Source: an uncultured Flavobacteriaceae bacterium | GTDB lineage: Bacteria; Bacteroidota; Bacteroidia; Flavobacteriales; Flavobacteriaceae | Length of the DNA stretch: 54,379 nt | NCBI GenBank assembly: GCA_964563585.1 | Contig: CAZLXG010000004.1 | Coordinates: 8,594-62,972, forward strand | Direction: 5' to 3' | Shown: in pieces, positions 331-24,790 of the stretch | Position numbering within the stretch: position 1 is the stretch's first letter | Layout of the letters: each line of letters opens with the position of its first letter | Position numbers and translations under genes: made by a program | The notes under the pieces: generated by a model | Told to the model about the DNA's origin: nothing | Databases searched by the model: none | What the model saw: only the letters and a program-made list of their open reading frames with translations

Positions 331-339
331 TAGTGTTTC

Positions 340-1518: not shown

Positions 1519-1617
1519 AAGTTTTAAATTTATGTTTTTTGAAAAATGAAAAAGACTTAGGGAAGAATTTTATAAAGATATAAAATTCTTTTTTTACCGT
1601 ATCCTTTTATTAAAAAC

Positions 1618-2538: not shown

Positions 2539-2609
2539 TAAAGTATTTTTGTTTCCCCAAAAATAGTATGATTTTTTACTTATACACTATAAAATTTCCT
2601 TTTTAAATG

Positions 2610-2643
2610 AAAAACCCTCTTTGAACTAAATTGTTTAAAGAGG
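2610..2643 (-). terminator. probable rho-independent terminator of lysA
   Basis: Read on the minus strand: stem cctctttaaac / gttcaaagagg (one mismatch) followed by gtttttcattt. It lies about 20 nt after the lysA stop. Confidence 0.5.
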
Positions 2644-2664
2644 ATTTAGATATAGAAGGTGTTT

Positions 2665-3909: not shown

Positions 3910-4061
3910 TTTTCACCAAAGATATTTTTTTAGTTTTAATAAAAAATAAAAAATCATAAAATTAATTAAATTAAACAAAATGTTAATTATTTAACAATAT
4001 AATTTATATTTTAATCAGTGTATTCTTAAATAAAATATTAGTGTAATTAGTAGCTATTATA

Positions 4062-4069
4062 TACATTTG
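4062..4069 (+). promoter_or_regulatory. candidate Bacteroidota -7 promoter box (TAnnTTTG) for sucC
   Basis: tacatttg lies 27 nt upstream of the sucC ATG. No clean -33 TTG was found at the canonical spacing. Confidence 0.35.
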
Positions 4070-4095
4070 CTAATCTTAAAACCATTAAGCAAATT

Positions 4096-5286
4096 ATGAA
4101 TTTACACGAATATCAAGGTAAAGAAATATTGAGCAGTTTTGGTGTGCGTATCCAACGTGGTATTGTTGCACAAAACGCAAATGAAGCTGTTGCAGCTGCA
4201 AAACAATTAACAGCAGAAACCGGAACAGGTTGGCATGTTATAAAAGCACAAATTCACGCTGGTGGGCGAGGTAAAGGTGGTGGTGTTAAATTGGCAAAAA
4301 GCCTTAAAGAAGTTGAAGAGATTGCAGGGCAAATAATAGGAATGGATTTGGTAACGCCTCAAACATCTGCTGCTGGTAAACGTGTTCATCAAGTTTTAGT
4401 TACTGAGGATGTTTATTATCCAGGTGAAAGTGAAACAAGTGAGTTTTATGTATCTGTTTTATTAAATAGAAGCACAGGACGTAATATGATTATGTATTCT
4501 ACCGAAGGTGGAATGGATATTGAAACTGTTGCAGAAGAAACACCTCATTTAATATTTAAAGAAGAAATTGACCCAGCTGTTGGATTAATGCCTTTTCAAG
4601 CAAGACGCGTTGCTTTTAATTTAGGATTATCTGGATTAGCTTTTAAAGAAATGACAAAATTTATTGTAAACCTTTATACGGCTTACGTAAAATCAGATTC
4701 ATCTTTATTTGAAATTAATCCTGTTTTAAAAACAAGCGATAATAAAATAATGGCAGTTGATGCTAAAGTTACTATTGATGACAATGCACTATACAGACAT
4801 AAAGATTATGTTGATTTACGAGATTTACGTGAAGAAAGTGCTATTGAAGTTGAAGCTGGAGCTTTAGGATTAAACTATGTGGATTTAGAAGGGAATGTTG
4901 GATGTATGGTGAATGGTGCTGGTTTAGCAATGGCAACCATGGATTTAATTAAACAAGCTGGTGGAGAACCTGCTAACTTTTTAGATGTTGGAGGAACTGC
5001 TGATGCGGCACGTGTTGAAGCTGCATTTAGAATTATTTTGAAAGACCCAGAAGTAAAAGCTATTTTAATAAATATTTTTGGTGGTATTGTAAGATGTGAC
5101 CGTGTAGCACAAGGTGTTATTGATGCGTATAAAAATATGGGAAATATTAGTGTACCAATTATTGTACGTTTACAAGGAACCAATGCAGATATAGCAAAAG
5201 AACTTATTGATAAATCTGGTTTAGATGTTATGAGTGCAACTGAATTTCAAGAAGCTGCTGATAAAGTACAGGAAGTTTTAGGTTAA
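4096..5286 (+). CDS. sucC: succinate--CoA ligase (ADP-forming) beta subunit
   Basis: 396 aa. MNLHEYQGKEIL N-terminus, ATP-grasp region KAQIHAGGRGKGGGVK, and C-terminal GCMVNGAGLAMATMD and INIFGGI motifs. Confidence 0.95.
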   Translation: MNLHEYQGKEILSSFGVRIQRGIVAQNANEAVAAAKQLTAETGTGWHVIKAQIHAGGRGKGGGVKLAKSLKEVEEIAGQIIGMDLVTPQTSAAGKRVHQVLVTEDVYYPGESETSEFYVSVLLNRSTGRNMIMYSTEGGMDIETVAEETPHLIFKEEIDPAVGLMPFQARRVAFNLGLSGLAFKEMTKFIVNLYTAYVKSDSSLFEINPVLKTSDNKIMAVDAKVTIDDNALYRHKDYVDLRDLREESAIEVEAGALGLNYVDLEGNVGCMVNGAGLAMATMDLIKQAGGEPANFLDVGGTADAARVEAAFRIILKDPEVKAILINIFGGIVRCDRVAQGVIDAYKNMGNISVPIIVRLQGTNADIAKELIDKSGLDVMSATEFQEAADKVQEVLG

Positions 5287-5330
5287 AAATTGTTATGCTG
5301 AACTTGTTTTAGTATTTTATTATAAATTAA

Positions 5331-5360
5331 AAGAGCAACGTTAATTGTTGCTCTTTTTTT
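5331..5360 (+). terminator. rho-independent terminator after sucC
   Basis: Stem aagagcaac / gttgctctt followed by a T7 run. It overlaps the last codons of the convergent DUF1456 gene. Confidence 0.55.
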
Positions 5361-5607
5361 GTTTTGTTTTTTGTGATTCATCTTTTTTTGGTCTCGGACC
5401 ACGTAAATGAATAACCAATCCGTTTAAAAAATTACGTAAAATTTGGTCACCACATTCCATATATTTTGGATGGTCTTCTTTTCTAAAAAAAGCACCTAAC
5501 TCACTTTTCGAAATTCTAAAATCTACAAGTGCTAATATCTTTACAATATCATCATCACGTAATTTTAAAGCTACTCGTAATTTTTTTAAAATATCATTAT
5601 TTGTCAT
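5341..5607 (-). CDS. DUF1456 (YehS-like) family protein
   Basis: 88 aa. MTNNDILKKLRVALKLRDDDIVKIL and SKSELGAFFRKEDHPKY match the DUF1456 repeat signature. Confidence 0.7.
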   Translation of the reverse strand: MTNNDILKKLRVALKLRDDDIVKILALVDFRISKSELGAFFRKEDHPKYMECGDQILRNFLNGLVIHLRGPRPKKDESQKTKQKKSNN

Positions 5608-5972
5608 TCCTATAGTTTAGTTTTTTCAACTTGCGTTTTATCGATCATTATAAAAACACATGTTCTATTAGCGTTTTTGAAATTTTTGTAAAGGTACTTC
5701 AAATATTTTGTTTGCTACATGCTGTTTTTGATTGCAAAATTAACGGTAATTATCTGATAATTAGTTATTTGAATTCATTATTAGAGCTGATGAGAAATAT
5801 TATAAAACACGATTTGTCTGATTTTATTGACTATTTTATTTATTATAATTGTTGAAACAAATAAAAAACCCGATTAAAAACATACCACTTTTCGATAAGT
5901 TACATTATATCTACGATTATAAAAAAGGGGTTCTGTTGTATATTTATAGTATAATTATTTAATCCCTTAGAG

Positions 5973-6386
5973 ATGGTTAATAGAGTAGAAAAATTAAGTC
6001 TTTTATCAGAAATGATAGCATTTGCAAAATATGATAAAGACATAAGAAATATAGAATATAATTTTTTATTAGGTGTTGCAAAACAACTTGAAATAACTCG
6101 TGAAGATTTTGAGTATTTAATTGAACATCCAGTTTCATATACACATTTAAAATCTCATAGTGAGCGTATTGTACAATTTCATCGATTAGTATTATTGATG
6201 AATATTGAAAGTAATAATGTAGAAGGGAAAAATTCTGCTGGTGTTATAAAATTATACAATTTTGGTTTAAGAATGGGGCTAAGTCATGAGTCTATTACTA
6301 AGGTTTTATATTTAATGGAAAGTTTTCCAAATAAAATTGTACCACCAGATGTATTAATAGATATTTTTAAAACACAGTATAATTAA
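5973..6386 (+). CDS. hypothetical protein, possibly TerB-like
   Basis: 137 aa helical protein. The pattern LSLLSEMIAFAKYDKDIRNIEYNFL resembles TerB/DjlA-N type domains. The assignment is weak. Confidence 0.4.
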   Translation: MVNRVEKLSLLSEMIAFAKYDKDIRNIEYNFLLGVAKQLEITREDFEYLIEHPVSYTHLKSHSERIVQFHRLVLLMNIESNNVEGKNSAGVIKLYNFGLRMGLSHESITKVLYLMESFPNKIVPPDVLIDIFKTQYN

Positions 6387-6432
6387 GATTTTATTGCTAA
6401 GTTTAATTTTAGTGTTGATACTTAGATTTTTT

Positions 6433-6465
6433 GAAAAGCTAAAAGTTTTAAACTTTTAGCTTTTC
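6433..6465 (+). terminator. long perfect palindrome after the 5973-6386 gene (possible terminator)
   Basis: gaaaagctaaaagttt / aaacttttagcttttc, followed on the plus strand by a T-rich tail. It straddles the uvrB stop codon. Confidence 0.4.
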
Positions 6466-8451
6466 TAGTTTATTTTGGTAAGTTTTAATATCGTCGCGTA
6501 ATTTTGCAGCAATAATAAAATCTAAAGCTTTAGCAGCCTGCTCCATAAGTTTACGTTTTTCTCTAATTTTCTTTTCTAATTCAGGTTTACTTAAGTATTC
6601 GTTTTCTGGTTCGGCGGCTCTTAAAGCTTCTAATTCGTAACTATAAGTGCTTACAGAATTTTTTGACAAAGCATTATTTAAACTTTTGTTTAAAGATTTT
6701 GGTGTGATATTATGTTTTGTATTGTATGCAATTTGTTTTTCACGTCTGTATTCAGTTTCATCAATAGTTTTTTGCATGCTTTTAGTGATTTTATCAGCAT
6801 ACATAATAGCTTTTCCATTTAGGTTTCTTGCAGCTCTACCAACAGTTTGGGTAAGTGAACGCGCCGAACGTAAAAAACCTTCTTTATCAGCATCTAAAAT
6901 GGCGACCAATGATACTTCTGGTAAATCTAATCCTTCACGAAGTAAGTTTACACCAACTAGCACATCAAATATGCCTTTACGTAAGTCTTGCATGATTTCA
7001 ACACGTTCTAATGTATCTACATCACTATGGATATAACGACAGCGTATTTGAATTCTATCTAAGTATTTCGTTAATTCCTCTGCCATTCGTTTGGTAAGGG
7101 TTGTAATTAAAGTACGCTCGTCTTTTTCAACACGTTGTTGAATTTCTTCTATTAAATCATCTATTTGATTTAAACTTGGACGAATTTCTATAATTGGGTC
7201 TAATAAACCTGTTGGACGAATTACTTGTTCAACAAAAATACCATCTGTTTTTTGAAGCTCATAATCAGCAGGTGTTGCACTAACATAAATGACTTGGTTT
7301 TGGATGGCTTCAAATTCTTCAAATTTTAATGGTCTATTATCCATAGCAGCCGGAAGTCTAAAACCATATTCTACTAAATTTTCTTTTCTACTTCTGTCTC
7401 CACCATACATGGCGTGTACTTGAGAAATGGTTACATGACTTTCATCTACTACCATTAAATAATCATCTGGAAAATAATCTAATAAACAAAACGGTCGTGT
7501 TCCAGGAGCCCGTCCGTCTAAATACCTTGAATAGTTTTCTATACCTGAACAATACCCTAATTCTCGAATCATTTCTAAATCGAATTCGGTACGTTCTTTT
7601 AAACGTTTTGCTTCTAAATGTTTACCAATTTCTTTAAAGTAATCGTGCTGTTTTACTAAATCTACTTGGATTTCTTTAATAGCACCTTGAAGTACATCTG
7701 GTGAAGTAACAAACATGTTTGCAGGATAAATAGTTAGTCTGTCATACTTTTCTACAACTTTATTGGTTTGAATATTAAAGGATTCAATATCTTCAATTTC
7801 ATCTCCAAAAAAGTGAATTCTAAAAGCATCATCTGCATAACTTGGAAATATATCAACGGTGTCTCCTTTTATTCTGAAGTTTCCATGTTTAAAATCGGCT
7901 TCAGTTCTAGAATATAAACTTTGTACTAATTGATGTAATAGTTTTGTTCTGGAAATAACTTGGTCACGTTTTATAGTAACTACATTTTTTTGAAACTCAA
8001 TAGGGTTTCCAATACCATAAATACAAGAAACTGATGCAATTACTAAAACATCACGACGACCCGAAAGTAGGGAAGACGTGGCGCTTAATCGCATTTTTTC
8101 TATTTCTTCATTAATTGATAAATCTTTTTCTATATAAACACCAGAAACAGGAATGTAGGCTTCGGGTTGATAATAATCGTAATATGACACAAAATATTCT
8201 ACTGCATTGTTTGGGAAAAATTGTTTGAATTCAGAATATAATTGTGCAGCAAGTGTTTTATTATGTGCTAAAACTAAAGTTGGCTTTTGTACTTCTTCAA
8301 TAACATTTGCAACTGTAAATGTTTTACCAGAACCTGTTACACCAAGTAGAGTTTGGTACTTTTCATTGGAGTTAATTCCGTTTACAAGTTGTTTTATTGC
8401 TTGTGGTTGGTCGCCTGTTGGACTAAATTCAGATTCAATTTTAAATTGCAT
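6448..8451 (-). CDS. uvrB: excinuclease ABC subunit B
   Basis: 667 aa. Walker A GVTGSGKT, DESH box (VVDESHVT), helicase motifs, beta-hairpin region YYDYYQPEAY, and a C-terminal UVR domain. Confidence 0.97.
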   Translation of the reverse strand: MQFKIESEFSPTGDQPQAIKQLVNGINSNEKYQTLLGVTGSGKTFTVANVIEEVQKPTLVLAHNKTLAAQLYSEFKQFFPNNAVEYFVSYYDYYQPEAYIPVSGVYIEKDLSINEEIEKMRLSATSSLLSGRRDVLVIASVSCIYGIGNPIEFQKNVVTIKRDQVISRTKLLHQLVQSLYSRTEADFKHGNFRIKGDTVDIFPSYADDAFRIHFFGDEIEDIESFNIQTNKVVEKYDRLTIYPANMFVTSPDVLQGAIKEIQVDLVKQHDYFKEIGKHLEAKRLKERTEFDLEMIRELGYCSGIENYSRYLDGRAPGTRPFCLLDYFPDDYLMVVDESHVTISQVHAMYGGDRSRKENLVEYGFRLPAAMDNRPLKFEEFEAIQNQVIYVSATPADYELQKTDGIFVEQVIRPTGLLDPIIEIRPSLNQIDDLIEEIQQRVEKDERTLITTLTKRMAEELTKYLDRIQIRCRYIHSDVDTLERVEIMQDLRKGIFDVLVGVNLLREGLDLPEVSLVAILDADKEGFLRSARSLTQTVGRAARNLNGKAIMYADKITKSMQKTIDETEYRREKQIAYNTKHNITPKSLNKSLNNALSKNSVSTYSYELEALRAAEPENEYLSKPELEKKIREKRKLMEQAAKALDFIIAAKLRDDIKTYQNKLEKLKV

Positions 8452-8476
8452 TTTACAAAATTACACAAAATATAAA

Positions 8477-11400
8477 TTAACGCTTCAATGCAAAATGACC
8501 TTTAACATCAAAATCTTCACCATTTTGTTTCACTTTTGCAACAAACCAATAATCATCTGACGGCATATTTTCACCTCTGAAAGTTCCATCCCACCCAATT
8601 GAAGTATGAGGTAAGGTTTTAATTAGTTTTCCGTGTCGGTTATAAATGTAAACAATGGTTCCTGGAATTTGATCTATACCTATAATATGCCAAGTATCGT
8701 AATGTCCATCATTATTTGGAGTTACAAATTTTGGAATATCAATAACGACTACTTCAGTAGTAACATCTTTACAGCCATTTAAATCTCTTATTGTTACGAT
8801 GTGAAGTCCGAAAGTTACATTTTCAAAAACATTAGAAGTTTGTGGCTCACCATCATCTAACATAAATACATAATCGCCAATACCACTTATGTTTACAGTA
8901 ATACTATTCGGGTCTGCAAAGTCTACTGTGGTTGTAAAGTTAATGGTCGCGTCTTCAGATTCAATAACTGAAAAAGCTTTAGTGTATTCACAATTATCAA
9001 GTGTTGTTACTGTTAACCAATAATCGCCTAAGTCATTTAGTCCCAATTGTATTTCTGAAGTAATTTCTCCTGTCGACCATAAATACGTGTCACCACTATT
9101 TCCTGTATTTCCATCAATGATTAAAGGTAAATCATTAATACAAAGTGGTACAACATTTTCAATAGGAATAATAGGTAAAGGATTTACTTGAGCAATAAAT
9201 TGAGTAATATTATAACACCCAGTTGTATTATTTTCAATTCTAGTATAAATAGTTTCACCATCAATTGCTGCGTACATATTGCTTAATGAATTGCTAGCGT
9301 TTTCTGCATTTGTTATATCGTTATAATATGTAACTGCAAACGAAGAAGGGTTTTGAGTTCCTAATACATCATTTGTATTTGCTGATAAATCAAATTCAAA
9401 AAAGCCATCAAAATCATCATCACAACTTATTAGGTTTGGTGGTGTATTAGCAGTTGGATTTGGATTTATTTGTAAATTAAAAGGCACCGTTATTGGACAA
9501 CCAATATTTAAATCGATAATCCTTGCATAAATAGTAGTTAAAGCTGATGTGTAATTGTATAGATTACCTATAGCTGCTACATTATTATCTGCATCATTTT
9601 GATTGTTATGATACGATATATTTACCAAACTAGTATCGGTTACTAATAAATTACTTGCTTCAGATAAATTAAAAGTAGCAGAATCATTATCACAAATTTG
9701 TATAGTTGTAATTGTATTTGTTGCTGGTGGAAGTATTACTAATAATTCTAAAGGAATTACACTAAAACAACCTGTTAATATATTTGCAACTTTAATATAG
9801 GTTGTTCTTGTATTTGAGATAAAGTTTGTTGGATCAATAATTTCATTGCTATTATCCAACCCATCATCTTGATTAATATCTTCAAAATTTTCAAAATAGT
9901 TTACAATTAAATCAGTTTGTAGTCTGTCTAGAATTTCAAAATCGGCAGTTTCTAAATTAAAAGTAACGAACCCATCATAATCTGTATCACAAGACTCCAT
10001 TGTTGAAGCTTCAGTAATATCTGGCGAAGCAATAATATTAATACCTAATTCTTCTACAATATGACAGAATGAATCACCACTTTCTATTCTTACATAAAGT
10101 GTTTGTGGGTTTTGAATATTTGTATACTGCAATGCTTGTGCATTCGCATTATTTTCTGCATCGGTTGGATTTAAATGAAATGAAATATTAAGGTTATCTG
10201 GTGAGCCTTGAGATATTTCTGTGATTTTCGCTGTTAAATCGAAAACATGAAAACCATCATTACTAATATCATCACAAATTAAATATGGAATAATTGGATT
10301 GTAAACTGGGTCTGGTGATACTTGTAAATCAAATGTCGAAGTAGCAAAACAAGAGGAATCTGTAATGTTTTCAACTCTTACATAAACTATTTGTGGGCTT
10401 ATTGTGTTTTGGAAGATTGAATTTTTATCAATAGGAATAGTGAAAAGAGCATCTTCAAAATAAAATACTTCTTTTCCAGTTTGCCCATTTAAAATTTCAG
10501 TGTCTTTATCAACAAGTAGAAAATCGGCAATAACATCTCCATCATCTTCACATATTTGAAAATTAGTAATTGTAGGTATATCTGGAAGTGTATTTACTGT
10601 TACATTAAACGTTACAATATTATAACAACCAGAACTTGAATTTTCAACGCGTATAAAAATTGATTGTGTGTTTGTGTTATATGATGTTCTGTTAGTGATT
10701 GCATTTGTATTTATATCTGCATCATTAAAAGAAGTGAAAAAATCAATATTTAAACCTGTGGTACTTGGTAGTATTTCTGGAATTTTATCTTCCAAATTTA
10801 TTATTGAAAATCCATCTTGATCGTTATCACAAATCAGTAAAAGTGTTGGTTCTATAACAGCAGGAGCGACTATAATTTGAATTTCTAAAGGATTAACGCT
10901 GAAACACCCTGTATCAATATTTTCAATACGAGCAAATATGTTTTCTACAGAGGTAGTATTCGTATAAAAAGGTGGTAGTTGGTTGGTGTTGTTTTCTGCA
11001 TCAAGTTGAGTAGGGTAATAACTAACTTCAAAATTTGTATTTCCACCTGTTATATCACTATCAAATGATGTAAGATCAATACTAATAATACCATCATCAT
11101 CTGTATCACAATATAGGTAGGGACTTGTTTGATTGAATAATAAAATTGGATTTACTAATAATGTAATTTCAGTTTTTTCAATACAATCTCCATTGTCTAT
11201 TTTAATAAATAATATACTTGGACTTGTAGCTGAATAAAAAATAGATTTATCTAGTGCGTTAGTATCATTGTCAATATCTAATTGTGTTTCGTAAAATGTA
11301 ACTATAATGTTAGGTAAATCGTTTGCAATAAATAATTCAAGTGCAAGAAGGTCAAAATTTAAAGTATCAGTAGTATCATCGTTATTATCACATAATGCAA

Positions 11401-13312
11401 AATCGCCAGTATCTGTACCGGTAAGTAATAAATTGGTATGAATTTCTACCGGAACTATAGAATAGCAACCTGTAATATCATCTTCAATTCTTACATAAAG
11501 AACTTGTTCTTCTGTACTTATGTTTTCGTAATTATTTGTATTTGGAATTGAATTAATTCCATCTACTGCATCTTGAAAAATTTCATGAAATGTTACAGTA
11601 ACACCAGTTAAACCTCCTAAAATATTATTTAGTACCGAAGTTAAATCAAAAGTTGCAGTTCCATCTAAATCTCTATCACATGCATCTATATACTGAGTAT
11701 CTCTATTTACTATAGGGCTAGTAGTTAGATTAATAGTTAAAGAAGTAGTATTAACACAACCTGTTTGAGTATTTATAACCCTTACATAAACTATGTCAAT
11801 TGGTGTGTTTGTGTTAATATATGTTGCAGGTATTGGATTGTTACCACTGCTAGCATCTGCTGGTGAGTAATGATATGTTACCATTAAATTAGTTTGTCCT
11901 GAAGTAATTTCATCATCTTTTTGCGATAAATCAATTATGGTATAGCCATCAGGAGAATCATCTCCATCACAAATTTCTAGTGGAGATGGAATCACAATAT
12001 TTGGTAGTGAGTTTACAACTAAATTAAATGTTGTATATCCATAACAACCAGAATCTAAATTTTCAATTCTAACAAATATTGGCTGTGGATTTATAGTATT
12101 TGAAGTTGTTGTTATGCTATTTATGTTGTTTCTAGCATCTGAATCTGATAGATGATAAGAAAATGAATAATTAGCAAACGGAATATTATTTATTACTTCT
12201 GTATTTTTAGTTGTAAGGTTAAATGTTTCTATTCCATCTTCAGTTGGGTCGTCACAAAGTTCGTAATCTGAGATTAAATTGATTGTTTCTTCATTGTTTA
12301 AAAGAACAACAATTTCATCTTCTTCTATACAATCGTTACCATTTAATTGTACGGTAACTTCAACTCTATAAGTGCCATTTTGAGTTGCGTTTAGAGTGGG
12401 ATTTGTTCCCGCTATTGGATTATTGTCTAAAAACCACGCATATGTAGCTAAAGGGTTTTGTATGTCTGCATTTAAAAGCGCAAAACTTTCACAAGTTGAA
12501 ATGTCTTCACCTAAATCTAAAATTTTAAAACTATTACCTTCAATAAATACTGCTGAATCAAAAGTACCATCTGTTTGATCCGCAATTACTAATTTAATAT
12601 GGTATTGTACATATGGCGTTATAGTTGTAGAAGCAGTTAAGATGTTGGTTCGTCCATTATAATTGGTATCACCAATATTGTAACCATTAAAATATTGGTC
12701 GTTTTGTGCAGGACAAACTCCAAAAATTTCATCATGAATGGTATTAGTATTAACTGGAATTGAAGTGCCTGGTACTAAAGCAATATTCTGATATGGTAAT
12801 GCGCTTCCAGTTTCTTTAATTAGAAATGCAAATCCATCAGCTAGTTGACAAGGATTTATTCCAAAATATTCTTCTGAAGCTAAAATATAATTAAATTGAA
12901 TTAAATTAGAAATAGATATAATGTCAAATTCAATAGAAGTTGCGTTTAAGGTGTTATTGATACCTAATGCTGTTTCTAAATCAGGGTCTGATCCCCAAAT
13001 TGAAGAACCTTCACTAAGAGTTGGAGTAATTAAACCATTACCTCCAGAATTTGCATCACCTGTAGAAAGCATAATGCCATCTTCAAAAGGAAAATTAGAA
13101 CTTGCTCTACTAAATTGTGCAAAACTAGAAAGTCCACTAACACTACCATTAACAGTTGAGGTTATATTAGTAATTTCTACACAGCTATTTTGTACAAGAT
13201 TATTTTCTATAAGTTGCTGTAAGCCAACCGAGCTATCAACCGAAATTTGCTGAGAATACATATAATTGCTACAGCAAAATAGTATTACAAAAAAGGAATA
13301 GACAAATTTCAT
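8477..13312 (-). CDS. giant T9SS type-B sorting-domain surface protein with a choice-of-anchor-L head and 11 tandem ~94-aa modules
   Basis: 1611 aa. Signal peptide MKFVYSFFVILFCCSNYMYSQQ. N-terminal choice-of-anchor-L-like region (MLSTGDANSGGN, ILASEEYFG, DGFAFLI, ALVPGTSIPVNTNTIH). Eleven tandem modules, then the C-terminal motif FVTPNNDGHYDTWHI...YNRHGKLI...WDGTFRGENMPSDDYWF typical of the gliding-motility C-terminal (type B) sorting domain. Confidence 0.85.
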   Translation of the reverse strand: MKFVYSFFVILFCCSNYMYSQQISVDSSVGLQQLIENNLVQNSCVEITNITSTVNGSVSGLSSFAQFSRASSNFPFEDGIMLSTGDANSGGNGLITPTLSEGSSIWGSDPDLETALGINNTLNATSIEFDIISISNLIQFNYILASEEYFGINPCQLADGFAFLIKETGSALPYQNIALVPGTSIPVNTNTIHDEIFGVCPAQNDQYFNGYNIGDTNYNGRTNILTASTTITPYVQYHIKLVIADQTDGTFDSAVFIEGNSFKILDLGEDISTCESFALLNADIQNPLATYAWFLDNNPIAGTNPTLNATQNGTYRVEVTVQLNGNDCIEEDEIVVLLNNEETINLISDYELCDDPTEDGIETFNLTTKNTEVINNIPFANYSFSYHLSDSDARNNINSITTTSNTINPQPIFVRIENLDSGCYGYTTFNLVVNSLPNIVIPSPLEICDGDDSPDGYTIIDLSQKDDEITSGQTNLMVTYHYSPADASSGNNPIPATYINTNTPIDIVYVRVINTQTGCVNTTSLTINLTTSPIVNRDTQYIDACDRDLDGTATFDLTSVLNNILGGLTGVTVTFHEIFQDAVDGINSIPNTNNYENISTEEQVLYVRIEDDITGCYSIVPVEIHTNLLLTGTDTGDFALCDNNDDTTDTLNFDLLALELFIANDLPNIIVTFYETQLDIDNDTNALDKSIFYSATSPSILFIKIDNGDCIEKTEITLLVNPILLFNQTSPYLYCDTDDDGIISIDLTSFDSDITGGNTNFEVSYYPTQLDAENNTNQLPPFYTNTTSVENIFARIENIDTGCFSVNPLEIQIIVAPAVIEPTLLLICDNDQDGFSIINLEDKIPEILPSTTGLNIDFFTSFNDADINTNAITNRTSYNTNTQSIFIRVENSSSGCYNIVTFNVTVNTLPDIPTITNFQICEDDGDVIADFLLVDKDTEILNGQTGKEVFYFEDALFTIPIDKNSIFQNTISPQIVYVRVENITDSSCFATSTFDLQVSPDPVYNPIIPYLICDDISNDGFHVFDLTAKITEISQGSPDNLNISFHLNPTDAENNANAQALQYTNIQNPQTLYVRIESGDSFCHIVEELGINIIASPDITEASTMESCDTDYDGFVTFNLETADFEILDRLQTDLIVNYFENFEDINQDDGLDNSNEIIDPTNFISNTRTTYIKVANILTGCFSVIPLELLVILPPATNTITTIQICDNDSATFNLSEASNLLVTDTSLVNISYHNNQNDADNNVAAIGNLYNYTSALTTIYARIIDLNIGCPITVPFNLQINPNPTANTPPNLISCDDDFDGFFEFDLSANTNDVLGTQNPSSFAVTYYNDITNAENASNSLSNMYAAIDGETIYTRIENNTTGCYNITQFIAQVNPLPIIPIENVVPLCINDLPLIIDGNTGNSGDTYLWSTGEITSEIQLGLNDLGDYWLTVTTLDNCEYTKAFSVIESEDATINFTTTVDFADPNSITVNISGIGDYVFMLDDGEPQTSNVFENVTFGLHIVTIRDLNGCKDVTTEVVVIDIPKFVTPNNDGHYDTWHIIGIDQIPGTIVYIYNRHGKLIKTLPHTSIGWDGTFRGENMPSDDYWFVAKVKQNGEDFDVKGHFALKR
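9155..12268 (-). repeat. array of 11 tandem, diverged ~94-aa coding modules inside the 1611-aa gene
   Basis: Each unit reads C-[DE]-x-D-x-DG...F[ND]L...[VI][ST][FY][HY]...DA...Q.[IL][FY][VA]R[VI]E[ND]...GC. Boundaries were counted from the protein (about aa 349 to 1386). The copies are diverged at DNA level. Confidence 0.8.
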
Positions 13313-13348
13313 AGTATGTAGGCTTTTTATTGGGTGAAATTAAAACTT

Positions 13349-13379
13349 AAAAAAGTTTACTTTCGTGTTGAAAGTAAAT
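13349..13379 (-). terminator. hairpin plus T-run between the 815-aa and 1611-aa T9SS genes
   Basis: Read on the minus strand: atttactttc-aacac-gaaagtaaac followed by ttttttaag. It lies only about 40 nt upstream of the 1611-aa gene ATG and overlaps a near-consensus -7 box (tacattta). It could therefore be a terminator or a leader structure. Confidence 0.5.
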
Positions 13380-13452
13380 GTATTTTAGATGAAACGCAAA
13401 AAAAACACGATGAAATACATTTTTATTTGTTTTTATGTTGAAATACACAGTA

Positions 13453-15900
13453 CTATCGTTTTAAAGTAAAATGATTTTTAAAGATTCTACCGTCTTGTAA
13501 AGTAACTGCAAACCAGTAATCATCAGCGGGTAATTTTTCGCCATTAAATAAACCATCCCAACCATCACCTAACGGGTTTAATTGTTTAATTAGTTTACCA
13601 TATCTATTAAAGATAATGACGTTAGAGTTTGGTTGAAACATGGTAGATATACCAAGTACTTGCCAAGTATCATGTTTGCCATCATTATTAGGAGTAAAGA
13701 ATTTAGGAAACCCAATAACAGATACATTCTCTTGTACTACACCACAATTATTTTTAATATCTCTAACACTAACGGTATAAATACCGGGGTATATATTTTC
13801 AAAAACATTACTTTCTTGATAAGGCACGTAAACTATATTGTTTTCATCAAGTAATCGATATTCGTAGACACCTTCACCAGAAACTAAAACAGTAATGGTA
13901 TTGTTTTGAGAAGCATCTACCACCTTAATAGATTGAAAGGTTGCTGTATTAGAAGATTCAATAGTAATAGTTCTTACTTTAGAACATCCATTAGCATTAT
14001 TTGTAACGGTAACGGAATAGGTTCCAATTTCATTAATTTGTACTTCATAACTATTTTCGCCAGTAGACCAACTGTAGCTATAGTTTAAAGCGGAATCGTT
14101 TAATACAGCTGCATTGATAGGAATTGTTTGCGGAAATGTATTCAAGCAGTAATACTCAAGATCTTCAAAAGTAATATCGGGCAATTCATTAACGGTTAAA
14201 AGAATTTCACTAATACCATAACAGTTATTTGCGTTTTCAACACGGGCAAAAATGGTTTGAGAATATGGTATTGTATTAGTAAATGAAGAGTTAAGATTGT
14301 TTGTTTCTAAAAGCGCATCATCATAGGTTTCAAAATAAGAAATTACTAACCCAGGAGGAAGGCTAATAACAATATTATTATCGGCATCATTTAGATTAAA
14401 AAGATAAAACCCATCTTCAGTACCATCATCATCACAAGCAATAAGTTGAGTGTTTTCAGAATTAGTTACGCTAACCTCTAGTGTTAGTTCAGAAAAACTA
14501 AAACAACCTGTTAAATCATTAATAACTTCCACATAAATAGTTTGTGGGTTTGTGGTATTGCTAAATGAACTACCATCAACTTTATCTGTTCTAGCAGAGT
14601 TGGTAAAGAAATGTGTAGTTCTACCATTCGCATTTCCTGTTAAATTATCATTGGCTTGATTAAGATTAAAAAGTGTTAATCCATCAACAAGACCATCTTC
14701 ATCGCATTGTATAAGTGTTGAGTTAAAAGATGTGGGGTTAAGGTTTACAGCTAAATTTAAGGTTGTAATGCTTTTACAATCGGGATTTAAAACATCTTCA
14801 ATCCTAACAAATATTTCTTGATTAAATGGCGTTGTATTATAGTATAGATTTGGTAATATCCCAGCTTTAGTTTCTGCTTCCGCAGAGGTTAAATGATATG
14901 AAATATTAATATCTGCTGGATTTTGTCCATCAAGTATTTCAGTGTTTTTAGTAGATAAATCAAAAGTTACTTGACCATTAGTATCATCACTATCATTAGT
15001 ATTATCACAAAGAATATAATCACTAGGTTGGGAAAAATGAGCACCTAAAGTAGCTGTTAAAGTAAAGTTTGTAATATCAAAGCAACCAGTAGTAGCATTA
15101 GTAATTCTTACAAAAATAGTTTGAAAGTTACTAATATTAGTATATGGGCTATTTAATTCACCGATGCCAATATTCGCATCACTTTCAGTTTCGTGATATG
15201 TAATATTTACATTGGTTTGTGAACCAGTTATTATACTTGTATTATCGGTTAAATTAAAAGTAGTAAACCCATCATTAAAAGGGGCAACAACATCACAAGT
15301 TTCTAAATCTATTGCAGCTTGTGTAGTTGATTCATTTGTTGGTGGATCTGAGAATTGAGCAGTTCCAGTCCATTCAAGTGAAAATGGGCTATTGCCAATA
15401 GGTCTATCAATAACTATGTAATAAGTTTCTCCAGCTAAAACATTTAGCCATTTTACAAAACTGTTACCATTTGGACCAGGTCCTTCTGCTGTATCGGTTG
15501 AAGTGCCATTCATTCCAGTTAGATTATTTCCTTGATTAGCTGCTTGAGGGTTAGTTGTTGAGCAACGAATAGCTTGCCCAATATTACCACAAGTAACGTT
15601 TGGTCCGAATACAAAAAAATCATAATCTTCTGTAATTGCTGTACTATTTGGGGTTAGTGTAAAACCTAATGTACCACTCGTAACTAAAGTTACTTGTAGC
15701 CAAACACTATTGTTTTCTTGACTAGAACATGTATTTGACCCGTTTAATTCTTGAGTTCCAACTCCACTAACATTCAAATTAATATTTGAATTACCACAAG
15801 CAATTACAGCATCAATACAATCTGTAGGTTGTTGGGCTATTGTTAAATTTGATATAGCTATAAATATAGAAAAGTAAAATAGTTTGTTATGTAATTTCAA
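13453..15900 (-). CDS. T9SS type-B sorting-domain surface protein with a Cys-rich beta-sandwich-like head and 4 modules
   Basis: 815 aa with a TTG start. Signal peptide KLHNKLFYFSIFIAISNLTIAQQ. Four copies of the CD.D.DG...GC module. C-terminal FFTPNNDGKHDTWQV...FNRYGKLI...WDGLFNGEKLPADDYWF. Confidence 0.85.
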   Translation of the reverse strand: MKLHNKLFYFSIFIAISNLTIAQQPTDCIDAVIACGNSNINLNVSGVGTQELNGSNTCSSQENNSVWLQVTLVTSGTLGFTLTPNSTAITEDYDFFVFGPNVTCGNIGQAIRCSTTNPQAANQGNNLTGMNGTSTDTAEGPGPNGNSFVKWLNVLAGETYYIVIDRPIGNSPFSLEWTGTAQFSDPPTNESTTQAAIDLETCDVVAPFNDGFTTFNLTDNTSIITGSQTNVNITYHETESDANIGIGELNSPYTNISNFQTIFVRITNATTGCFDITNFTLTATLGAHFSQPSDYILCDNTNDSDDTNGQVTFDLSTKNTEILDGQNPADINISYHLTSAEAETKAGILPNLYYNTTPFNQEIFVRIEDVLNPDCKSITTLNLAVNLNPTSFNSTLIQCDEDGLVDGLTLFNLNQANDNLTGNANGRTTHFFTNSARTDKVDGSSFSNTTNPQTIYVEVINDLTGCFSFSELTLEVSVTNSENTQLIACDDDGTEDGFYLFNLNDADNNIVISLPPGLVISYFETYDDALLETNNLNSSFTNTIPYSQTIFARVENANNCYGISEILLTVNELPDITFEDLEYYCLNTFPQTIPINAAVLNDSALNYSYSWSTGENSYEVQINEIGTYSVTVTNNANGCSKVRTITIESSNTATFQSIKVVDASQNNTITVLVSGEGVYEYRLLDENNIVYVPYQESNVFENIYPGIYTVSVRDIKNNCGVVQENVSVIGFPKFFTPNNDGKHDTWQVLGISTMFQPNSNVIIFNRYGKLIKQLNPLGDGWDGLFNGEKLPADDYWFAVTLQDGRIFKNHFTLKR
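13459..14711 (-). repeat. copy 1 of a 1,253-bp apparently identical direct repeat (3-prime part of the 815-aa gene)
   Basis: A base-by-base visual comparison with 15910-17162 (offset 2451) showed no differences. The encoded 417 aa and both antisense ORFs in the track are identical. Confidence 0.95.
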
Positions 15901-15903
15901 ATC

Positions 15904-18618
15904 TTAATATTTTAAAGTAAAATGATTTTTAAAGATTCTACCGTCTTGTAAAGTAACTGCAAACCAGTAATCATCAGCGGGTAATTTTTCGCCATTAAAT
16001 AAACCATCCCAACCATCACCTAACGGGTTTAATTGTTTAATTAGTTTACCATATCTATTAAAGATAATGACGTTAGAGTTTGGTTGAAACATGGTAGATA
16101 TACCAAGTACTTGCCAAGTATCATGTTTGCCATCATTATTAGGAGTAAAGAATTTAGGAAACCCAATAACAGATACATTCTCTTGTACTACACCACAATT
16201 ATTTTTAATATCTCTAACACTAACGGTATAAATACCGGGGTATATATTTTCAAAAACATTACTTTCTTGATAAGGCACGTAAACTATATTGTTTTCATCA
16301 AGTAATCGATATTCGTAGACACCTTCACCAGAAACTAAAACAGTAATGGTATTGTTTTGAGAAGCATCTACCACCTTAATAGATTGAAAGGTTGCTGTAT
16401 TAGAAGATTCAATAGTAATAGTTCTTACTTTAGAACATCCATTAGCATTATTTGTAACGGTAACGGAATAGGTTCCAATTTCATTAATTTGTACTTCATA
16501 ACTATTTTCGCCAGTAGACCAACTGTAGCTATAGTTTAAAGCGGAATCGTTTAATACAGCTGCATTGATAGGAATTGTTTGCGGAAATGTATTCAAGCAG
16601 TAATACTCAAGATCTTCAAAAGTAATATCGGGCAATTCATTAACGGTTAAAAGAATTTCACTAATACCATAACAGTTATTTGCGTTTTCAACACGGGCAA
16701 AAATGGTTTGAGAATATGGTATTGTATTAGTAAATGAAGAGTTAAGATTGTTTGTTTCTAAAAGCGCATCATCATAGGTTTCAAAATAAGAAATTACTAA
16801 CCCAGGAGGAAGGCTAATAACAATATTATTATCGGCATCATTTAGATTAAAAAGATAAAACCCATCTTCAGTACCATCATCATCACAAGCAATAAGTTGA
16901 GTGTTTTCAGAATTAGTTACGCTAACCTCTAGTGTTAGTTCAGAAAAACTAAAACAACCTGTTAAATCATTAATAACTTCCACATAAATAGTTTGTGGGT
17001 TTGTGGTATTGCTAAATGAACTACCATCAACTTTATCTGTTCTAGCAGAGTTGGTAAAGAAATGTGTAGTTCTACCATTCGCATTTCCTGTTAAATTATC
17101 ATTGGCTTGATTAAGATTAAAAAGTGTTAATCCATCAACAAGACCATCTTCATCGCATTGTAATAAAGTGGTGTTAAAGGCTTCTGGATTTTCATTATAA
17201 ATAACGTAAGCTTCACCCTCAATAGCACAGTCGCCATTGTTTGGGTCTATATACACTTCGTAATGACCACCTTGTGTAATAAATAAATCAAAATCGTTTT
17301 CTGGTAATGGATTCCCGTCCATAGTCCAAGTATAGCTTGCGCCTATAAGATTTTCAGCAATTAATGTATAAGAACTATTTTCACAAAGTTCAAGATTAGT
17401 AACACTTAGTCCATTTTTAATAATATCTACTTGTGTATTAAAAAAAGAAGTGATAAAAGGCGGTAATCCTTGTGACGAATTATTAGGAGAAAGGTTAACT
17501 GCGTTGTGTTGGTAGTTGCTTGCTGTACCAAGTTCATCAGGGTTGTTTATTACACCTAAAAAGGGTAACCCTTGACTATAAGTTGCACTAAGGGCTCTAT
17601 ATATTTTTCCGTTTGGCCCAAGTTGTAAAGCGCCTCTGTATAATTGTCTGTTATCAATAACTATAGCGGAAGCTTGAATATCTGCAGCTAAAAGATTGTA
17701 CTGTATTAATGACGATGTATGATTTGCAGGATTGTTGCTATTAGTTTGATTTTGAAAATCGAAAAAATCGTTTGAAGCATGAATATAAAGTAATTCGCTA
17801 TTTGGTGAAAATTCCACACCATATGCTTTGTTGTTAGGAGCATTTAATTGTAATTCAATTTGATTACTAACAATACCAGTAACAACATCAAAATCATACA
17901 AATACATACCATCAATAGTATTTGCAGATGCAAGTTTTGTTCCATCTGGTGATAGTTTTAAATAACCACGTGAATTACTAACGATAAGATTACTGAAAGA
18001 TGAAGAAACAGGAGTTGTATTTACACCTATGTCTGTTACCTCAAATGCGTGATAAGTATTATAAGTATTTGGACTCCCATCTACAGAAGCAAAAGTTATT
18101 ACCCAAATAGATTTTGTTATACAATCTTTTAAAACTGCTGATATTTTTTCTGAAGAATCTTGTAATAAGTTCGTATTTTTATTTGTTACTTCACCTAATC
18201 CACCATCAAGAGTTATATCAATTTCTGAATAATTTAAACCAAAATTATTACCATCAACGTTATTATCAACAGTAAAAATGTAGTAAATGTTTGAATCATT
18301 TGGTTTTGGGACAATAATGGCAGATTGTGTACTTGAAGAATCTCCAAACAATCCATTGCCATTTCGCATTATTACATGGTTTTTATTCCAAACCGTTTTA
18401 CCGTTTGAGTAAAATAATAAATTACCATTATTATCAGAAATGGTTGAACAACCTTCATTTGTAAATAATAGTCCATCATCTACAGAATTAATCGTATTAT
18501 TTGCTTGATTGAATTGAATGCCTCCACCAAAACCAAAGTACCAGTTAGCAGCTTCACTTTGAGCATGTAGGTTTATATAGCCTAAGCAGGCAATTATTAA
18601 TATGATAATTTTTTTCAT
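15904..18618 (-). CDS. T9SS type-B sorting-domain surface protein with a beta-propeller-like head and 2 modules
   Basis: 904 aa. Signal peptide MKKIIILIIACLGYINLHAQS. N-terminal ANWYFGFGGGIQFN...NGNLLFYSNG repeats typical of flavobacterial propeller-type heads. The C-terminal 417 aa are identical to the 815-aa protein except the last residue. Confidence 0.85.
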   Translation of the reverse strand: MKKIIILIIACLGYINLHAQSEAANWYFGFGGGIQFNQANNTINSVDDGLLFTNEGCSTISDNNGNLLFYSNGKTVWNKNHVIMRNGNGLFGDSSSTQSAIIVPKPNDSNIYYIFTVDNNVDGNNFGLNYSEIDITLDGGLGEVTNKNTNLLQDSSEKISAVLKDCITKSIWVITFASVDGSPNTYNTYHAFEVTDIGVNTTPVSSSFSNLIVSNSRGYLKLSPDGTKLASANTIDGMYLYDFDVVTGIVSNQIELQLNAPNNKAYGVEFSPNSELLYIHASNDFFDFQNQTNSNNPANHTSSLIQYNLLAADIQASAIVIDNRQLYRGALQLGPNGKIYRALSATYSQGLPFLGVINNPDELGTASNYQHNAVNLSPNNSSQGLPPFITSFFNTQVDIIKNGLSVTNLELCENSSYTLIAENLIGASYTWTMDGNPLPENDFDLFITQGGHYEVYIDPNNGDCAIEGEAYVIYNENPEAFNTTLLQCDEDGLVDGLTLFNLNQANDNLTGNANGRTTHFFTNSARTDKVDGSSFSNTTNPQTIYVEVINDLTGCFSFSELTLEVSVTNSENTQLIACDDDGTEDGFYLFNLNDADNNIVISLPPGLVISYFETYDDALLETNNLNSSFTNTIPYSQTIFARVENANNCYGISEILLTVNELPDITFEDLEYYCLNTFPQTIPINAAVLNDSALNYSYSWSTGENSYEVQINEIGTYSVTVTNNANGCSKVRTITIESSNTATFQSIKVVDASQNNTITVLVSGEGVYEYRLLDENNIVYVPYQESNVFENIYPGIYTVSVRDIKNNCGVVQENVSVIGFPKFFTPNNDGKHDTWQVLGISTMFQPNSNVIIFNRYGKLIKQLNPLGDGWDGLFNGEKLPADDYWFAVTLQDGRIFKNHFTLKY
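15910..17162 (-). repeat. copy 2 of the 1,253-bp direct repeat (3-prime part of the 904-aa gene)
   Basis: See copy 1. Identity starts one codon before the stop codons (CGA TAG versus TAT TAA). It ends at the CDEDG start of a module, after which similarity decays within about 25 nt. Confidence 0.95.
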
Positions 18619-22350: not shown

Positions 22351-23367
22351 TTATTTACTGAAACGATGTAAAGTAAATGTCATAGCACTTAATAGTAAAA
22401 AAGCGCCTATTTGGTGTGCAACTCCTAGCCAAACAGGGACTTGTAATAAAATGGTTAAAACACCTAATAAAAATTGAATGGTTACAATGACTAATAATGC
22501 TTTGATACCTTTTGATTGTGTTGATGTAATATTTATTTTTTTTGATTTATACCAAATCATAAAAATTAAGATCACAACTATATAAGCGAGTATTCTATGT
22601 GCAAATTGCACACCACTTTTACCTTCTATAAAGTTTTTATATATGGGGTTTTGCTCTATATAAACAGTTTCGTGTATAAACTTACCATCATTCATTAAAG
22701 GCCAATGGTTGTGTATAAAACCAGCATCTAAACCTGCTACAAAAGCGCCATAAATTATTTGAAGTAGGAGTACAGATAATCCAATTCTAATAAAGTTTCT
22801 TAATCTTGTATTGATTGTTTTTTTCTGAGGAAATATTAAATCTAAAGCTACCCAAAACGTATATGCAAAGGTTATAAATGCGGTTGTTAAATGAGCTGCT
22901 AATCTGTAATGACTAACATCTGGATTGTCTACCAAACCACTTTTAACCATATACCAACCTAAAAAACCTTGAAATGCACCCAGACCAAGTAGTATAATTG
23001 ATTTTTTTATAGTAGATTTTGTAAGTTGTTTTCTTATTAAAAAGTATAGAAATGGTAAGAAAAAAACTAAACCAATCATTCTGCCAATAAAACGATGTAG
23101 CCATTCCCAGAAATAAATATCTTTAAAATCTTGTAATGAAAATCGATTGTTTAGTTTTTGATATTCTGGATATTGCTTGTATAAATCGAAAGCAGTTTCC
23201 CATTCAACATCATTCATTGGTGGAATTGTACCAGAAATTAATTTGTAATTTGAAATTGATAAACCAGAATGTGTTAAACGTGTTATGCCGCCAATAACTA
23301 CCATAATGAATATGAGCAAACATCCTATAAACAGCCAGTAAATTACTTTTTTGTTATTTTTTTTCAT
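22351..23367 (-). CDS. ctaA: heme A synthase (COX15/CtaA family)
   Basis: 338 aa polytopic protein. TRLTHSGLSI near TM1, and conserved His in HR.IG, AAHL and AHQIGA contexts typical of COX15/CtaA. Confidence 0.8.
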   Translation of the reverse strand: MKKNNKKVIYWLFIGCLLIFIMVVIGGITRLTHSGLSISNYKLISGTIPPMNDVEWETAFDLYKQYPEYQKLNNRFSLQDFKDIYFWEWLHRFIGRMIGLVFFLPFLYFLIRKQLTKSTIKKSIILLGLGAFQGFLGWYMVKSGLVDNPDVSHYRLAAHLTTAFITFAYTFWVALDLIFPQKKTINTRLRNFIRIGLSVLLLQIIYGAFVAGLDAGFIHNHWPLMNDGKFIHETVYIEQNPIYKNFIEGKSGVQFAHRILAYIVVILIFMIWYKSKKINITSTQSKGIKALLVIVTIQFLLGVLTILLQVPVWLGVAHQIGAFLLLSAMTFTLHRFSK

Positions 23368-24790
23368 TTGTACTTAATCCTAATTTTTCACCTTCTTTTA
23401 GCATTAATTGAAATGCAGCTTCGTGTTCATTTGGAATAACGCCATCTAAAATAGCTTCTTTTATTTTTTCTTTAATAATACCAATTTCTCGTGAAGGTTT
23501 TATGTTGAAGGTTTTTATTATGTCGCTACCAGAAATAGGTGGTTGAAAATTTCGAACATGGTCGCGTGCTTCAACTTCAATAATTTTGTTTCGAACAACC
23601 TTGAAATTGTTATGATATTTTTTGAATTTATTGGGATTCTTAGTTGTAATATCTGCTTCACAAAGTGTCATTAAATCATCTACATAATCGCCAGCATCAA
23701 ATACTAAACGCCTTACAGCAGAATCTGTAACATCTTGTGCAAGTACAATTGGACGTGAACTCATAAACACTAATTTCTGAACAAATTTCATTTTTTCATT
23801 CAATGGCATTTTCAATCTTTTAAATAATTGATATACCATTTTTGAGCCTTCAAATTCGTGTGCATGAAAAGTCCAACCTACTTTTTTACTAAACTTTTTT
23901 GTTGGTGCTTTTCCAATATCGTGTAGTAAAGCTGCCCAACGTAACCATACATCTTCTGTATGTTTAGAAATATTATCGACCACTTCTAGCGTGTGGTAAA
24001 AATTATCTTTATGACGCTGACCTTCAATGTCATCAATACCTTTAAGCGCAGTAAGTTCCGGTAGAATATGTTTTAAAAGCTTTGTTTTTTCTAATAGAAG
24101 AAATCCAATTGAAGGTGTTTTACTTTCAAGAATTTTATTAAGTTCAACAACAATGCGCTCATTAGTAATAATTTCAATGCGTTGATTGTTTCTTGAAATA
24201 GCATCTAATGATTCTTTTTCAATTGTAAAATTAAGTTGTGTTGCAAACCTAATGGCACGCATCATACGCAACGGGTCATCACTATATGTAATATCTGGAT
24301 TTAATGGTGTGCGAATGATTTTATTTTCTAAATCTTGAAGCCCATTAAAAGGGTCGAGAAGATTCCCGAAATTTTCTTCAGACAAATCTAAAGCAAAAGC
24401 ATTTATGGTAAAATCACGTCTGTTTTGGTCGTCTTCTAAAGTTCCGTTTTCAACAATAGGGTTTCTACTGTCTTCGTTGTAAGATTCTTTTCTAGCTCCA
24501 ACAAATTCAATATCAATATCATCATAACGTAACATTGCAGTTCCGTAAGTTTTAAATATTTGAACGTTCGGCGTGTTTGGTAAGTTTTTTGCAACCTGTT
24601 TTGCAAGTTCTATTCCACTACCAATTGTAACAATATCAATATCTTTATGTGTACCTCTTTTTAAAATAAAATCGCGTACAAATCCACCAATAACATAACT
24701 GTCTAAACCTAATTCGGAAGTAGATTTAGTAATAATTTTAAAAATGTTATGCTGTAACGCTTGCTTGTAATTCATATTCTTTTTTGCCAC
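23354..24790 (-). CDS. CCA-adding / poly(A) polymerase family tRNA nucleotidyltransferase with an HD domain
   Basis: 478 aa. GGFVRD...DID nucleotidyltransferase head, RDFTINA, DPLRMMRAIRF, and HD motif LLHDIGK. The track start is a GTG at 24790; an ATG at 24775 (MNYKQ...) is an equally plausible start. Confidence 0.85.
   Translation of the reverse strand: MAKKNMNYKQALQHNIFKIITKSTSELGLDSYVIGGFVRDFILKRGTHKDIDIVTIGSGIELAKQVAKNLPNTPNVQIFKTYGTAMLRYDDIDIEFVGARKESYNEDSRNPIVENGTLEDDQNRRDFTINAFALDLSEENFGNLLDPFNGLQDLENKIIRTPLNPDITYSDDPLRMMRAIRFATQLNFTIEKESLDAISRNNQRIEIITNERIVVELNKILESKTPSIGFLLLEKTKLLKHILPELTALKGIDDIEGQRHKDNFYHTLEVVDNISKHTEDVWLRWAALLHDIGKAPTKKFSKKVGWTFHAHEFEGSKMVYQLFKRLKMPLNEKMKFVQKLVFMSSRPIVLAQDVTDSAVRRLVFDAGDYVDDLMTLCEADITTKNPNKFKKYHNNFKVVRNKIIEVEARDHVRNFQPPISGSDIIKTFNIKPSREIGIIKEKIKEAILDGVIPNEHEAAFQLMLKEGEKLGLSTNEKK

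Follow-up and report, generated by a model that had tools for sequence, protein, structure and literature searches.

In a 54,379-nucleotide stretch of contig CAZLXG010000004.1 from an uncultured marine Flavobacteriaceae bacterium (hereafter the window), two tandem, co-oriented genes on the minus strand, with products of 904 and 815 amino acids (aa), share an identical 1253-bp sequence at their 3' ends. Judged from their sequences, the two products are modular cell-surface proteins that carry different heads (head B in the 904-aa protein, head A in the 815-aa protein) on a common stalk and anchor, referred to here as tail B and tail A, respectively. We propose, with a probability of roughly 85%, that the repeat reflects segmental concerted evolution, in which recurrent gene conversion would homogenise the homologous tails. 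Clustering of the tails, divergence at synonymous sites and mosaic tracts in related genomes together point to conversion that is recurrent, lineage-specific and confined to the tail, with escape in some genera. On the same three grounds, three other explanations are excluded: purifying selection, recent duplication of a whole gene and recent acquisition of the head-A gene.

The segments 13459-14711 and 15910-17162 (window coordinates throughout, unless a locus is named) are the same at 1253 of 1253 bases with an offset of 2451, and the maximal exact run has precisely these coordinates; an exact repeat of this length cannot have arisen by chance within 54 kb. The encoded 417-aa block comprises two FIDD-type CD.DG modules (FIDD module, Pfam PF26689, from precomputed annotations), two immunoglobulin (Ig)-like domains and a TIGR04131 type B sorting domain. 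The 3' limit of this identity lies one codon ahead of the stop, where the 815-aa gene reads CGA TAG (R) and the 904-aa gene TAT TAA (Y). Its 5' limit is the Cys-Asp of a CDEDG motif, with about 30 nt of weaker homology (NP.(A/S)FN.TL(L/I)Q) further upstream. The remaining modules of both genes and of the neighbouring 1611-aa gene match in DNA at only 60-78% over no more than 61 nt. An initial reading of the letters alone (the sequence-only reading) had described the base-for-base identity, the offset, the codon-level 3' boundary and the strong divergence of the other modules, and all of these were reproduced by computation or by direct reading. It had also called the boundaries sharp and meaningful; their positions hold, but for the most part they mark merely where homology ends.

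Three signs of concerted evolution were found at this locus: paralogous tails exceed orthologous tails in similarity in several lineages, the effect extends to synonymous sites while the heads diverge normally, and the homogenised tracts are mosaic with variable end-points. In eight genomes, including that of the window, the two tails are nearly or fully identical (Table 1). By comparison, tails taken from different members of these eight genomes are 58-88% identical, except for two closely related Wocania genomes (94-98%). In the tail tree, the sequences accordingly group by genome in the homogenised clade, whereas they group by orthology in the Algibacter and Hyunsoonleella groups. A-type tails in species with a single gene would point to past losses by crossover between tails; in these species, the similarity of the tail to the A-type and B-type differs by at most 2.3 points, which is too small to assign a type, with the exception of one B-type tail (L040).

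Table 1. Nucleotide identity between tail B and tail A of the same genome or contig
Genome or set	Tail B versus tail A	Remark
Window	100%	upper bound
Wocania metagenome-assembled genome (MAG; L007)	99.8%	
Wocania MAG (L009)	99.4%	
Jejuia spongiicola (L004)	99.3%	
Hwangdonia seohaensis (L008)	97.7%	
Strain MAR_2010_72 (L034)	95.3%	
Wocania ichthyoenteri (L003/L006)	94.2%	
Flaviramulus sp. (L005)	92.8%	
12 other two-gene genomes (Algibacter, Seonamhaeicola, Hyunsoonleella, others)	64-74%	not homogenised
Metagenome contigs	64-81%	not homogenised

Synonymous sites give the same picture. Within the homogenised genomes, synonymous divergence (pS) between the two tails is 0.002-0.21, as compared with 0.56-0.9 between species relative to the window and 0.41-0.53 among Jejuia, Flaviramulus and Wocania, heads and tails alike in both comparisons. 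Head A itself shows a pS of 0.58-0.73 to its nearest relatives and up to 0.81 to strain MAR_2010_72, matching the divergence of head B. In the partly homogenised pairs (L003, L005, L008 and L034), mismatches are patchy and lie between identical runs of 250-750 bases.

Strains close to the window date its last homogenisation and reveal a different tract edge. Four other assemblies belong to the same species-level lineage (L001, L002, L102 and a 41-kb contig from JGI). Compared with the window tail, the tail of L002 has 14 differing sites and that of L102 has 16, with 12 common to both, while the two window copies differ from each other at 0 sites. Homogenisation in the window, where the last conversion covered 1253 bp, is therefore younger than the split from sister strains at a distance of about 1%. 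In addition, the head-B gene of L002 switches from B-type to A-type between TTTAAC and TCAACACTTATACAATG, 17 nt upstream of the repeat edge in the window, indicating that the tract end-point differs between strains, here by 17 nt or more.

Both genes are old and have orthologues in many genera. Proteins orthologous to the 904-aa product form a tightly conserved family (902-906 aa, 60-75% identity) with members in Jejuia, Hwangdonia, Wocania, Seonamhaeicola, Algibacter and others. When species-representative genomes were scanned with an alignment of head B, 80 syntenic loci came up, and they show a gene order conserved across Flavobacteriaceae: ABC transporter, head-B gene, optional head-A gene, choice-of-anchor-L gene and often uvrB. 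About 20 of these 80 loci have the head-A gene, in a patchy distribution, and orthologues of its unique 5' part in the syntenic position in relatives are 61-84% identical. A metagenome scan with head A returned no relative above 70% identity and only further examples with diverged tails. A word-indexed protein search with head A missed the near-identical cluster (P0242-P0244) to which the 815-aa protein of the window itself belongs, and absence from its list does not equal real absence; we therefore dropped an argument that the sample of L002 lacks head A.

The sequence-only reading had left two options for the repeat, very recent duplication and ongoing gene conversion. The age of the orthologues, the normal between-species rates of the tails and the independent homogenisation in eight genomes support conversion over duplication. 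The reading had further held that relatives with ordinarily diverged tails and no structural variants would refute active conversion, and had suggested comparing synonymous divergence of the tails with that of the flanking modules. The refutation was tested and did not come about: eight genomes carry tails at 93-100% rather than at ordinary divergence. As for synonymous sites, tail pS within genomes is far below that between species.

Two observations on the tails in relatives stand beside these results. In Flavobacteriaceae bacterium MAR_2010_72 (L034, 11459-15143), the two tails resemble each other closely, yet they are only about 60% identical to the tails of all other lineages, and the nearest tree neighbour (L027) has a single gene. 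To judge from its sequence, this genome represents an independent homogenisation outside the Wocania/Jejuia clade. In Jejuia spongiicola, the Flaviramulus isolate and a Wocania MAG (L004, L005 and L007; about 12730-16070 in locus coordinates), a third gene lies between the two homogenised genes and encodes a second propeller-type head, 46-47% identical to head B, with its own tail. This third tail is about 65% identical to those of its neighbours, groups by orthology and is skipped by conversion, which fits a simple similarity threshold for recombination.

The process may be pictured as follows. Through homologous recombination of the two tails, within a single chromosome or across sister chromosomes, one tail would repeatedly be copied over the other. 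Such conversion would be non-reciprocal and presumably RecA-dependent; it would erase divergence across the whole homologous segment and halt where homology ends. The same repeats could also support unequal crossing-over, which would delete or duplicate the 2451-bp unit with the gene for the beta-sandwich head. Tails that have drifted too far apart would escape homogenisation, as may be the case in Algibacter-like genera and for the third paralogue in Jejuia and some Wocania genomes.

Several points weigh against this interpretation. The 100% identity of the two window tails is an upper bound on their true identity, which may be slightly lower, because tail, head A and tail form a simple de Bruijn loop for which a short-read source assembly would write both copies from one consensus. 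RecA dependence and the direction and rate of conversion are inferred. Homogenisation may be merely tolerated, or it may be selected. No PorP/SprF-like gene was found among the 10 further open reading frames (ORFs) scanned in the 54-kb window. Of the two structural variants described below, the deletion form of L002 could be produced by an assembler that skips the loop and hence is no proof of a deletion allele, and the duplicated head-A genes of W. ichthyoenteri lie on a draft scaffold with 1885 N between them.

Among the alternatives, the one that fares best, although we consider it quite unlikely, is a selected or programmed switch, in which the tails are kept the same because it is of advantage to delete and amplify the head-A unit reversibly or often, or to fit both cargoes to one PorP/SprF-type anchor. 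Both kinds of structural variant have candidates. L002 equals the window minus exactly one 2451-bp unit, with head B followed by a tail ending in KR-TAG and then by the flank of the 815-aa gene. Since KY is the ending of the closest 904-aa orthologues, L002 is a derived head-B/tail-A chimera and not the ancestral state; a real product of unequal crossing-over and a skipped assembly loop are about equally likely as its origin. In W. ichthyoenteri Th78 (L003, KN525716.1), the head-A gene occurs twice (9427-11826 and 13712-16111, 2400 nt, 99.83% identity, 4 mismatches), which suggests tandem amplification of the head-A-plus-tail unit, unless the repeated tails gave rise to a scaffolding artefact. 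In line with a switch, proteins whose C-terminal domain (CTD) is of type B bind cognate PorP-like proteins (PMC9143113), and conversion between the first and third genes bypasses the intervening paralogue in Jejuia and Wocania genomes. That bypass, however, is simply explained by a tail too diverged (65%) to recombine. Moreover, a deletion is irreversible without an outside template, both genes exist with diverged tails in many genera, so that their function does not require identity, and the scanned ORFs include no PorP/SprF gene.

The deletion contig and the possible amplification are the variants that the sequence-only reading had predicted, both under the assembly caveats given above. Its further idea, that recombination would swap heads onto a common anchor, goes too far: recombination between the tails only removes or duplicates the beta-sandwich-head gene and creates no new head-anchor combination. 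A programmed head-swap is not supported, and the term is overstated. Cassette-type antigenic or phase variation of the pilE/pilS, vlsE or tprK kind was also considered and rejected: it would call for silent, promoterless donor cassettes that feed a single expression site and for exchange of the variable part, but both genes are complete, and stalk and anchor are exchanged while the heads are not.

A broader proposal, which we regard as unlikely, is that homogenisation is selected because both cargoes dock on one PorP/SprF-type anchor or shuttle, so that the secretion and anchor module co-evolves as a unit through gene conversion while the heads diversify, together with a standing and frequent on/off and copy-number polymorphism of the beta-sandwich-head adhesin. 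If this were true, lineages with escaped tails would have gained separate anchors.

It is very unlikely that a single recent event, be it a tail duplication or the arrival of a head-A-plus-tail cassette by insertion or horizontal transfer, produced the repeat without any continuing conversion. The zero divergence in the window genome is equally compatible with such an event, and the patchiness of the head-A gene would agree with it. By comparison, head A is orthologous and syntenic in relatives, and its divergence equals that of head B, which leaves no place for recent acquisition. Independent homogenisation is seen in at least seven other genomes, graded from 92.8% to 99.8% and mosaic, and the tract edge is unlike between strains about 1% apart. 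In this regard, overwriting an existing tail even once would itself be gene conversion.

It is still less probable that the repeat is an assembly artefact, in which a genome with a single tail, or with two ordinarily diverged tails, was duplicated or collapsed by the assembler. For short-read assemblers, which settle such cases heuristically, tail, head A and tail amount to a simple loop, and L002 follows a one-copy path. The sequence-only reading had itself named an artefact as a possible refutation, and the independent assemblies, made from other samples, put this to the test. L001 (ENA, megahit k=141) is 99.93% identical to window positions 1-13599 and stops exactly 141 nt into repeat copy 2, at 13599; a break exactly k nt inside the repeat indicates a branching of the assembly graph where the repeat has its edge and calls for two different exits. 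L102 (JGI, 99.2% identical) contains, in this order, the final 30 nt of the 904-aa gene, then TAT TAA gat, head A, a complete tail with KR-TAG, the flank downstream of it and the 5' start of the 1611-aa gene. In L002 (JGI, about 99% identical), head B is joined to a tail, and the 41-kb JGI contig encodes a near-identical 815-aa product (same 90% cluster). All four junctions are therefore seen independently: L002 shows that of head B with its tail, L102 shows those on either side of head A, from the preceding tail and into the following one, and L001, L002 and L102 show that of the tail with the downstream flank. An artefact would leave independent support for only one repeat entry and one exit, which is not what was found; with both copies and all junctions present in independent assemblies, the two-copy repeat is real. 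Consistent with this, isolate genomes of related genera hold both genes with tails 92.8-99.3% identical, and the slight differences show that the copies were assembled separately.

Finally, purifying selection on the tail sequences themselves, for instance through an RNA or DNA element contained in them or through extreme constraint on codons, is vanishingly improbable: the tail bears the secretion and anchoring signal, making constraint at the protein level plausible, but between species it changes at the rate of the heads at synonymous and non-synonymous sites (pS 0.56-0.9; non-synonymous divergence, pN, 0.14-0.26), and the two tails differ by 26-36% in other genera.

The anatomy of the two genes and their surroundings (Table 2) agrees with the initial description of adjacent, co-oriented genes with a propeller head and a Cys-rich head, which place modules, Ig-like domains and a type B sorting domain in the shared block. 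Both genes are complete, with a start codon, a putative signal peptide and a CTD. Their N-termini, MKKIIILIIACLGYINLHAQ and MKLHNKLFYFSIFIAISNLTIAQQ, are signal-peptide-like as judged by eye. The TIGR04131 domain lies at the very C-terminus of both proteins (aa 729-815 of 815, 117 bits; aa 818-903 of 904, 114 bits), as for type B CTD cargo of a type IX secretion system (T9SS). Across all three proteins, including the 1611-aa product, this domain scores 103-117 bits against a cut-off of 35. In the two-gene unit, PF13585 scores 48 bits against a cut-off of 27.

Table 2. Features of the two-gene unit and its neighbour (window coordinates)
Feature	Position	Strand	Content or basis
Repeat copy 1, tail of 904-aa gene	15910..17162	-	2 FIDD modules, 2 Ig-like domains and a type B CTD (about 15907-16167)
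Repeat copy 2, tail of 815-aa gene	13459..14711	-	type B CTD at about 13456-13716
904-aa gene	15904..18618	-	putative signal peptide, beta-propeller head, Ig-like domain, shared tail; ends KY-TAA; TIGR04131 114 bits
5' unique part of 904-aa gene (head B)	17163..18618	-	AlphaFold model and Foldseek matches
Spacer, 904-aa stop to 815-aa TTG start	15901..15903	-	3 nt; junction also in independent contig L102
815-aa gene	13453..15900	-	TTG start; putative signal peptide, Cys-rich beta-sandwich head, 2 unique FIDD modules, shared tail; ends KR-TAG; TIGR04131 117 bits
5' unique part of 815-aa gene (head A and 2 FIDD modules)	14712..15900	-	AlphaFold model and Foldseek matches
1611-aa neighbour	8477..13312	-	choice-of-anchor L head, long FIDD array, own type B CTD; outside the identical repeat

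The heads were examined with predicted structures. Head B matched no Pfam family; its AlphaFold model (pLDDT 67.5) retrieved 7-bladed propellers with Foldseek, including Photorhabdus lectins, BtuG2 and WD40 proteins, and at the level of fold it is predicted to be a generic seven-bladed beta-propeller. Head A with its two private FIDD modules (pLDDT 85) retrieved a MAM-Ig ectodomain, fragments of the Aureispira grappling hook GhpA and cadherin-like domain chains, and it is modelled as a Cys-rich chain of beta-sandwich domains. The exact 904-aa product and the exact 815-aa product are both present in a public protein collection, the latter together with two near-identical JGI members.

The 904-aa and 815-aa genes are likely co-transcribed, judging by their arrangement. 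A promoter and terminator scan returned matches at or below chance expectation, with promoter models that do not cover Bacteroidota. Downstream of the 815-aa gene lie the 1611-aa gene, whose tail is about 34% identical in protein to the shared tail, and then uvrB. Many relatives (among L011, L013-L018, L025, L031, L041 and L048) carry a second, shorter choice-of-anchor-L/type B CTD gene between the counterpart of the 1611-aa gene and uvrB, indicating that the whole locus is a variable array of type B cargo genes. Elsewhere in the window, a strain-level indel lies between a 478-aa gene and the COX15/CtaA gene (window 23365-23374, L002 666-1091). Here L002 carries a 120-aa gene (Pfam 23S_rRNA_IVP/bAvd-like four-helix bundle), and the window has only about 10 nt, with overlapping flanking ORFs.

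Homogenisation of surface-protein genes has precedents. In Helicobacter pylori, the adhesin paralogues babA, babB and babC show concerted evolution with gene conversion that depends on RecA; intragenomic recombination among them homogenises near-identical segments and gives rise to chimeras (PMC5483490, where Pride & Blaser 2002 is cited as well). As with the genes described here, these are surface-protein paralogues with near-identical segments and a differing part, the ligand-binding part in bab and the heads in our case. The bab genes, however, encode outer-membrane proteins at dispersed loci, and their exchange alters binding phenotype and expression, whereas the present genes are tandem, encode T9SS type B cargo and exchange only stalk and anchor while the heads stay.

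A closer parallel in secretion is provided by Porphyromonas gingivalis rgpA, kgp and hagA, whose identical adhesin-domain repeats break automated assemblies and have been attributed to domain rearrangement and recombination (PMC5266723). As here, the repeats are common to several T9SS cargo genes, so that a process of this kind is already known among type A cargo. The P. gingivalis proteins differ in carrying a type A CTD, in being encoded at dispersed loci of a host-associated pathogen and in sharing haemagglutinin/adhesin repeats rather than FIDD modules, Ig-like domains and a CTD of type B; that study did not describe a tandem unit of two genes evolving in concert lineage by lineage.

Concerted evolution in prokaryotes is known for tufA/tufB, rRNA operons and amoCAB, in which paralogues within a genome are closer than orthologues between genomes, recurrently across lineages (PMC6053082). 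The same within-genome pattern is seen at this locus. In those systems, however, whole genes of core pathways are homogenised, which is put down to dosage or complex balance, whereas here only the 3' half is affected, in two surface-protein genes of different function, and escape is seen in several genera.

Among type B cargo, both proteins resemble Flavobacterium johnsoniae SprB/SprF-type adhesins in that they are large, modular, located on the cell surface and equipped with a TIGR04131 type B CTD, a domain believed to provide anchorage by binding an outer-membrane protein of the PorP/SprF-like kind (PMC9143113). They differ from SprB in their heads, in their much smaller size and in the absence of a sprF-like gene from the window ORFs scanned, and no gliding role is implied. 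We found no report of gene conversion in type B CTD proteins, and nothing on "FIDD", in the literature. The sequence-only reading, too, was aware of no head-swap or gene-conversion mechanism described for T9SS type B adhesins, but the process has long been known in kind, including for the T9SS type A cargo of P. gingivalis. What is new here is the occurrence of a well-known process in T9SS type B CTD proteins, and no new mechanism is involved.

The locus also carries a warning for annotation, as such repeats break or mis-route short-read assemblies. Many head-A homologues were "partial" at the ends of short contigs, or their contigs ended in or near the tail (L010, L012, L089, L096 and the matches of the head-A search), which makes the presence or absence of such adhesin genes in MAGs unreliable. 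This suggests that repeated tails commonly break short-read assemblies and that homogenised pairs are under-sampled in metagenomes.

For the Flavobacteriaceae, the locus offers a clean natural example in which recombination homogenises only the stalk and secretion-anchor half of two different surface proteins, repeatedly and independently across a marine clade, with escape in sister genera. Homogenised tails and escaped ones form a comparison set with which to ask which residues of the type B CTD and stalk are important for PorP/SprF-like partners to recognise.

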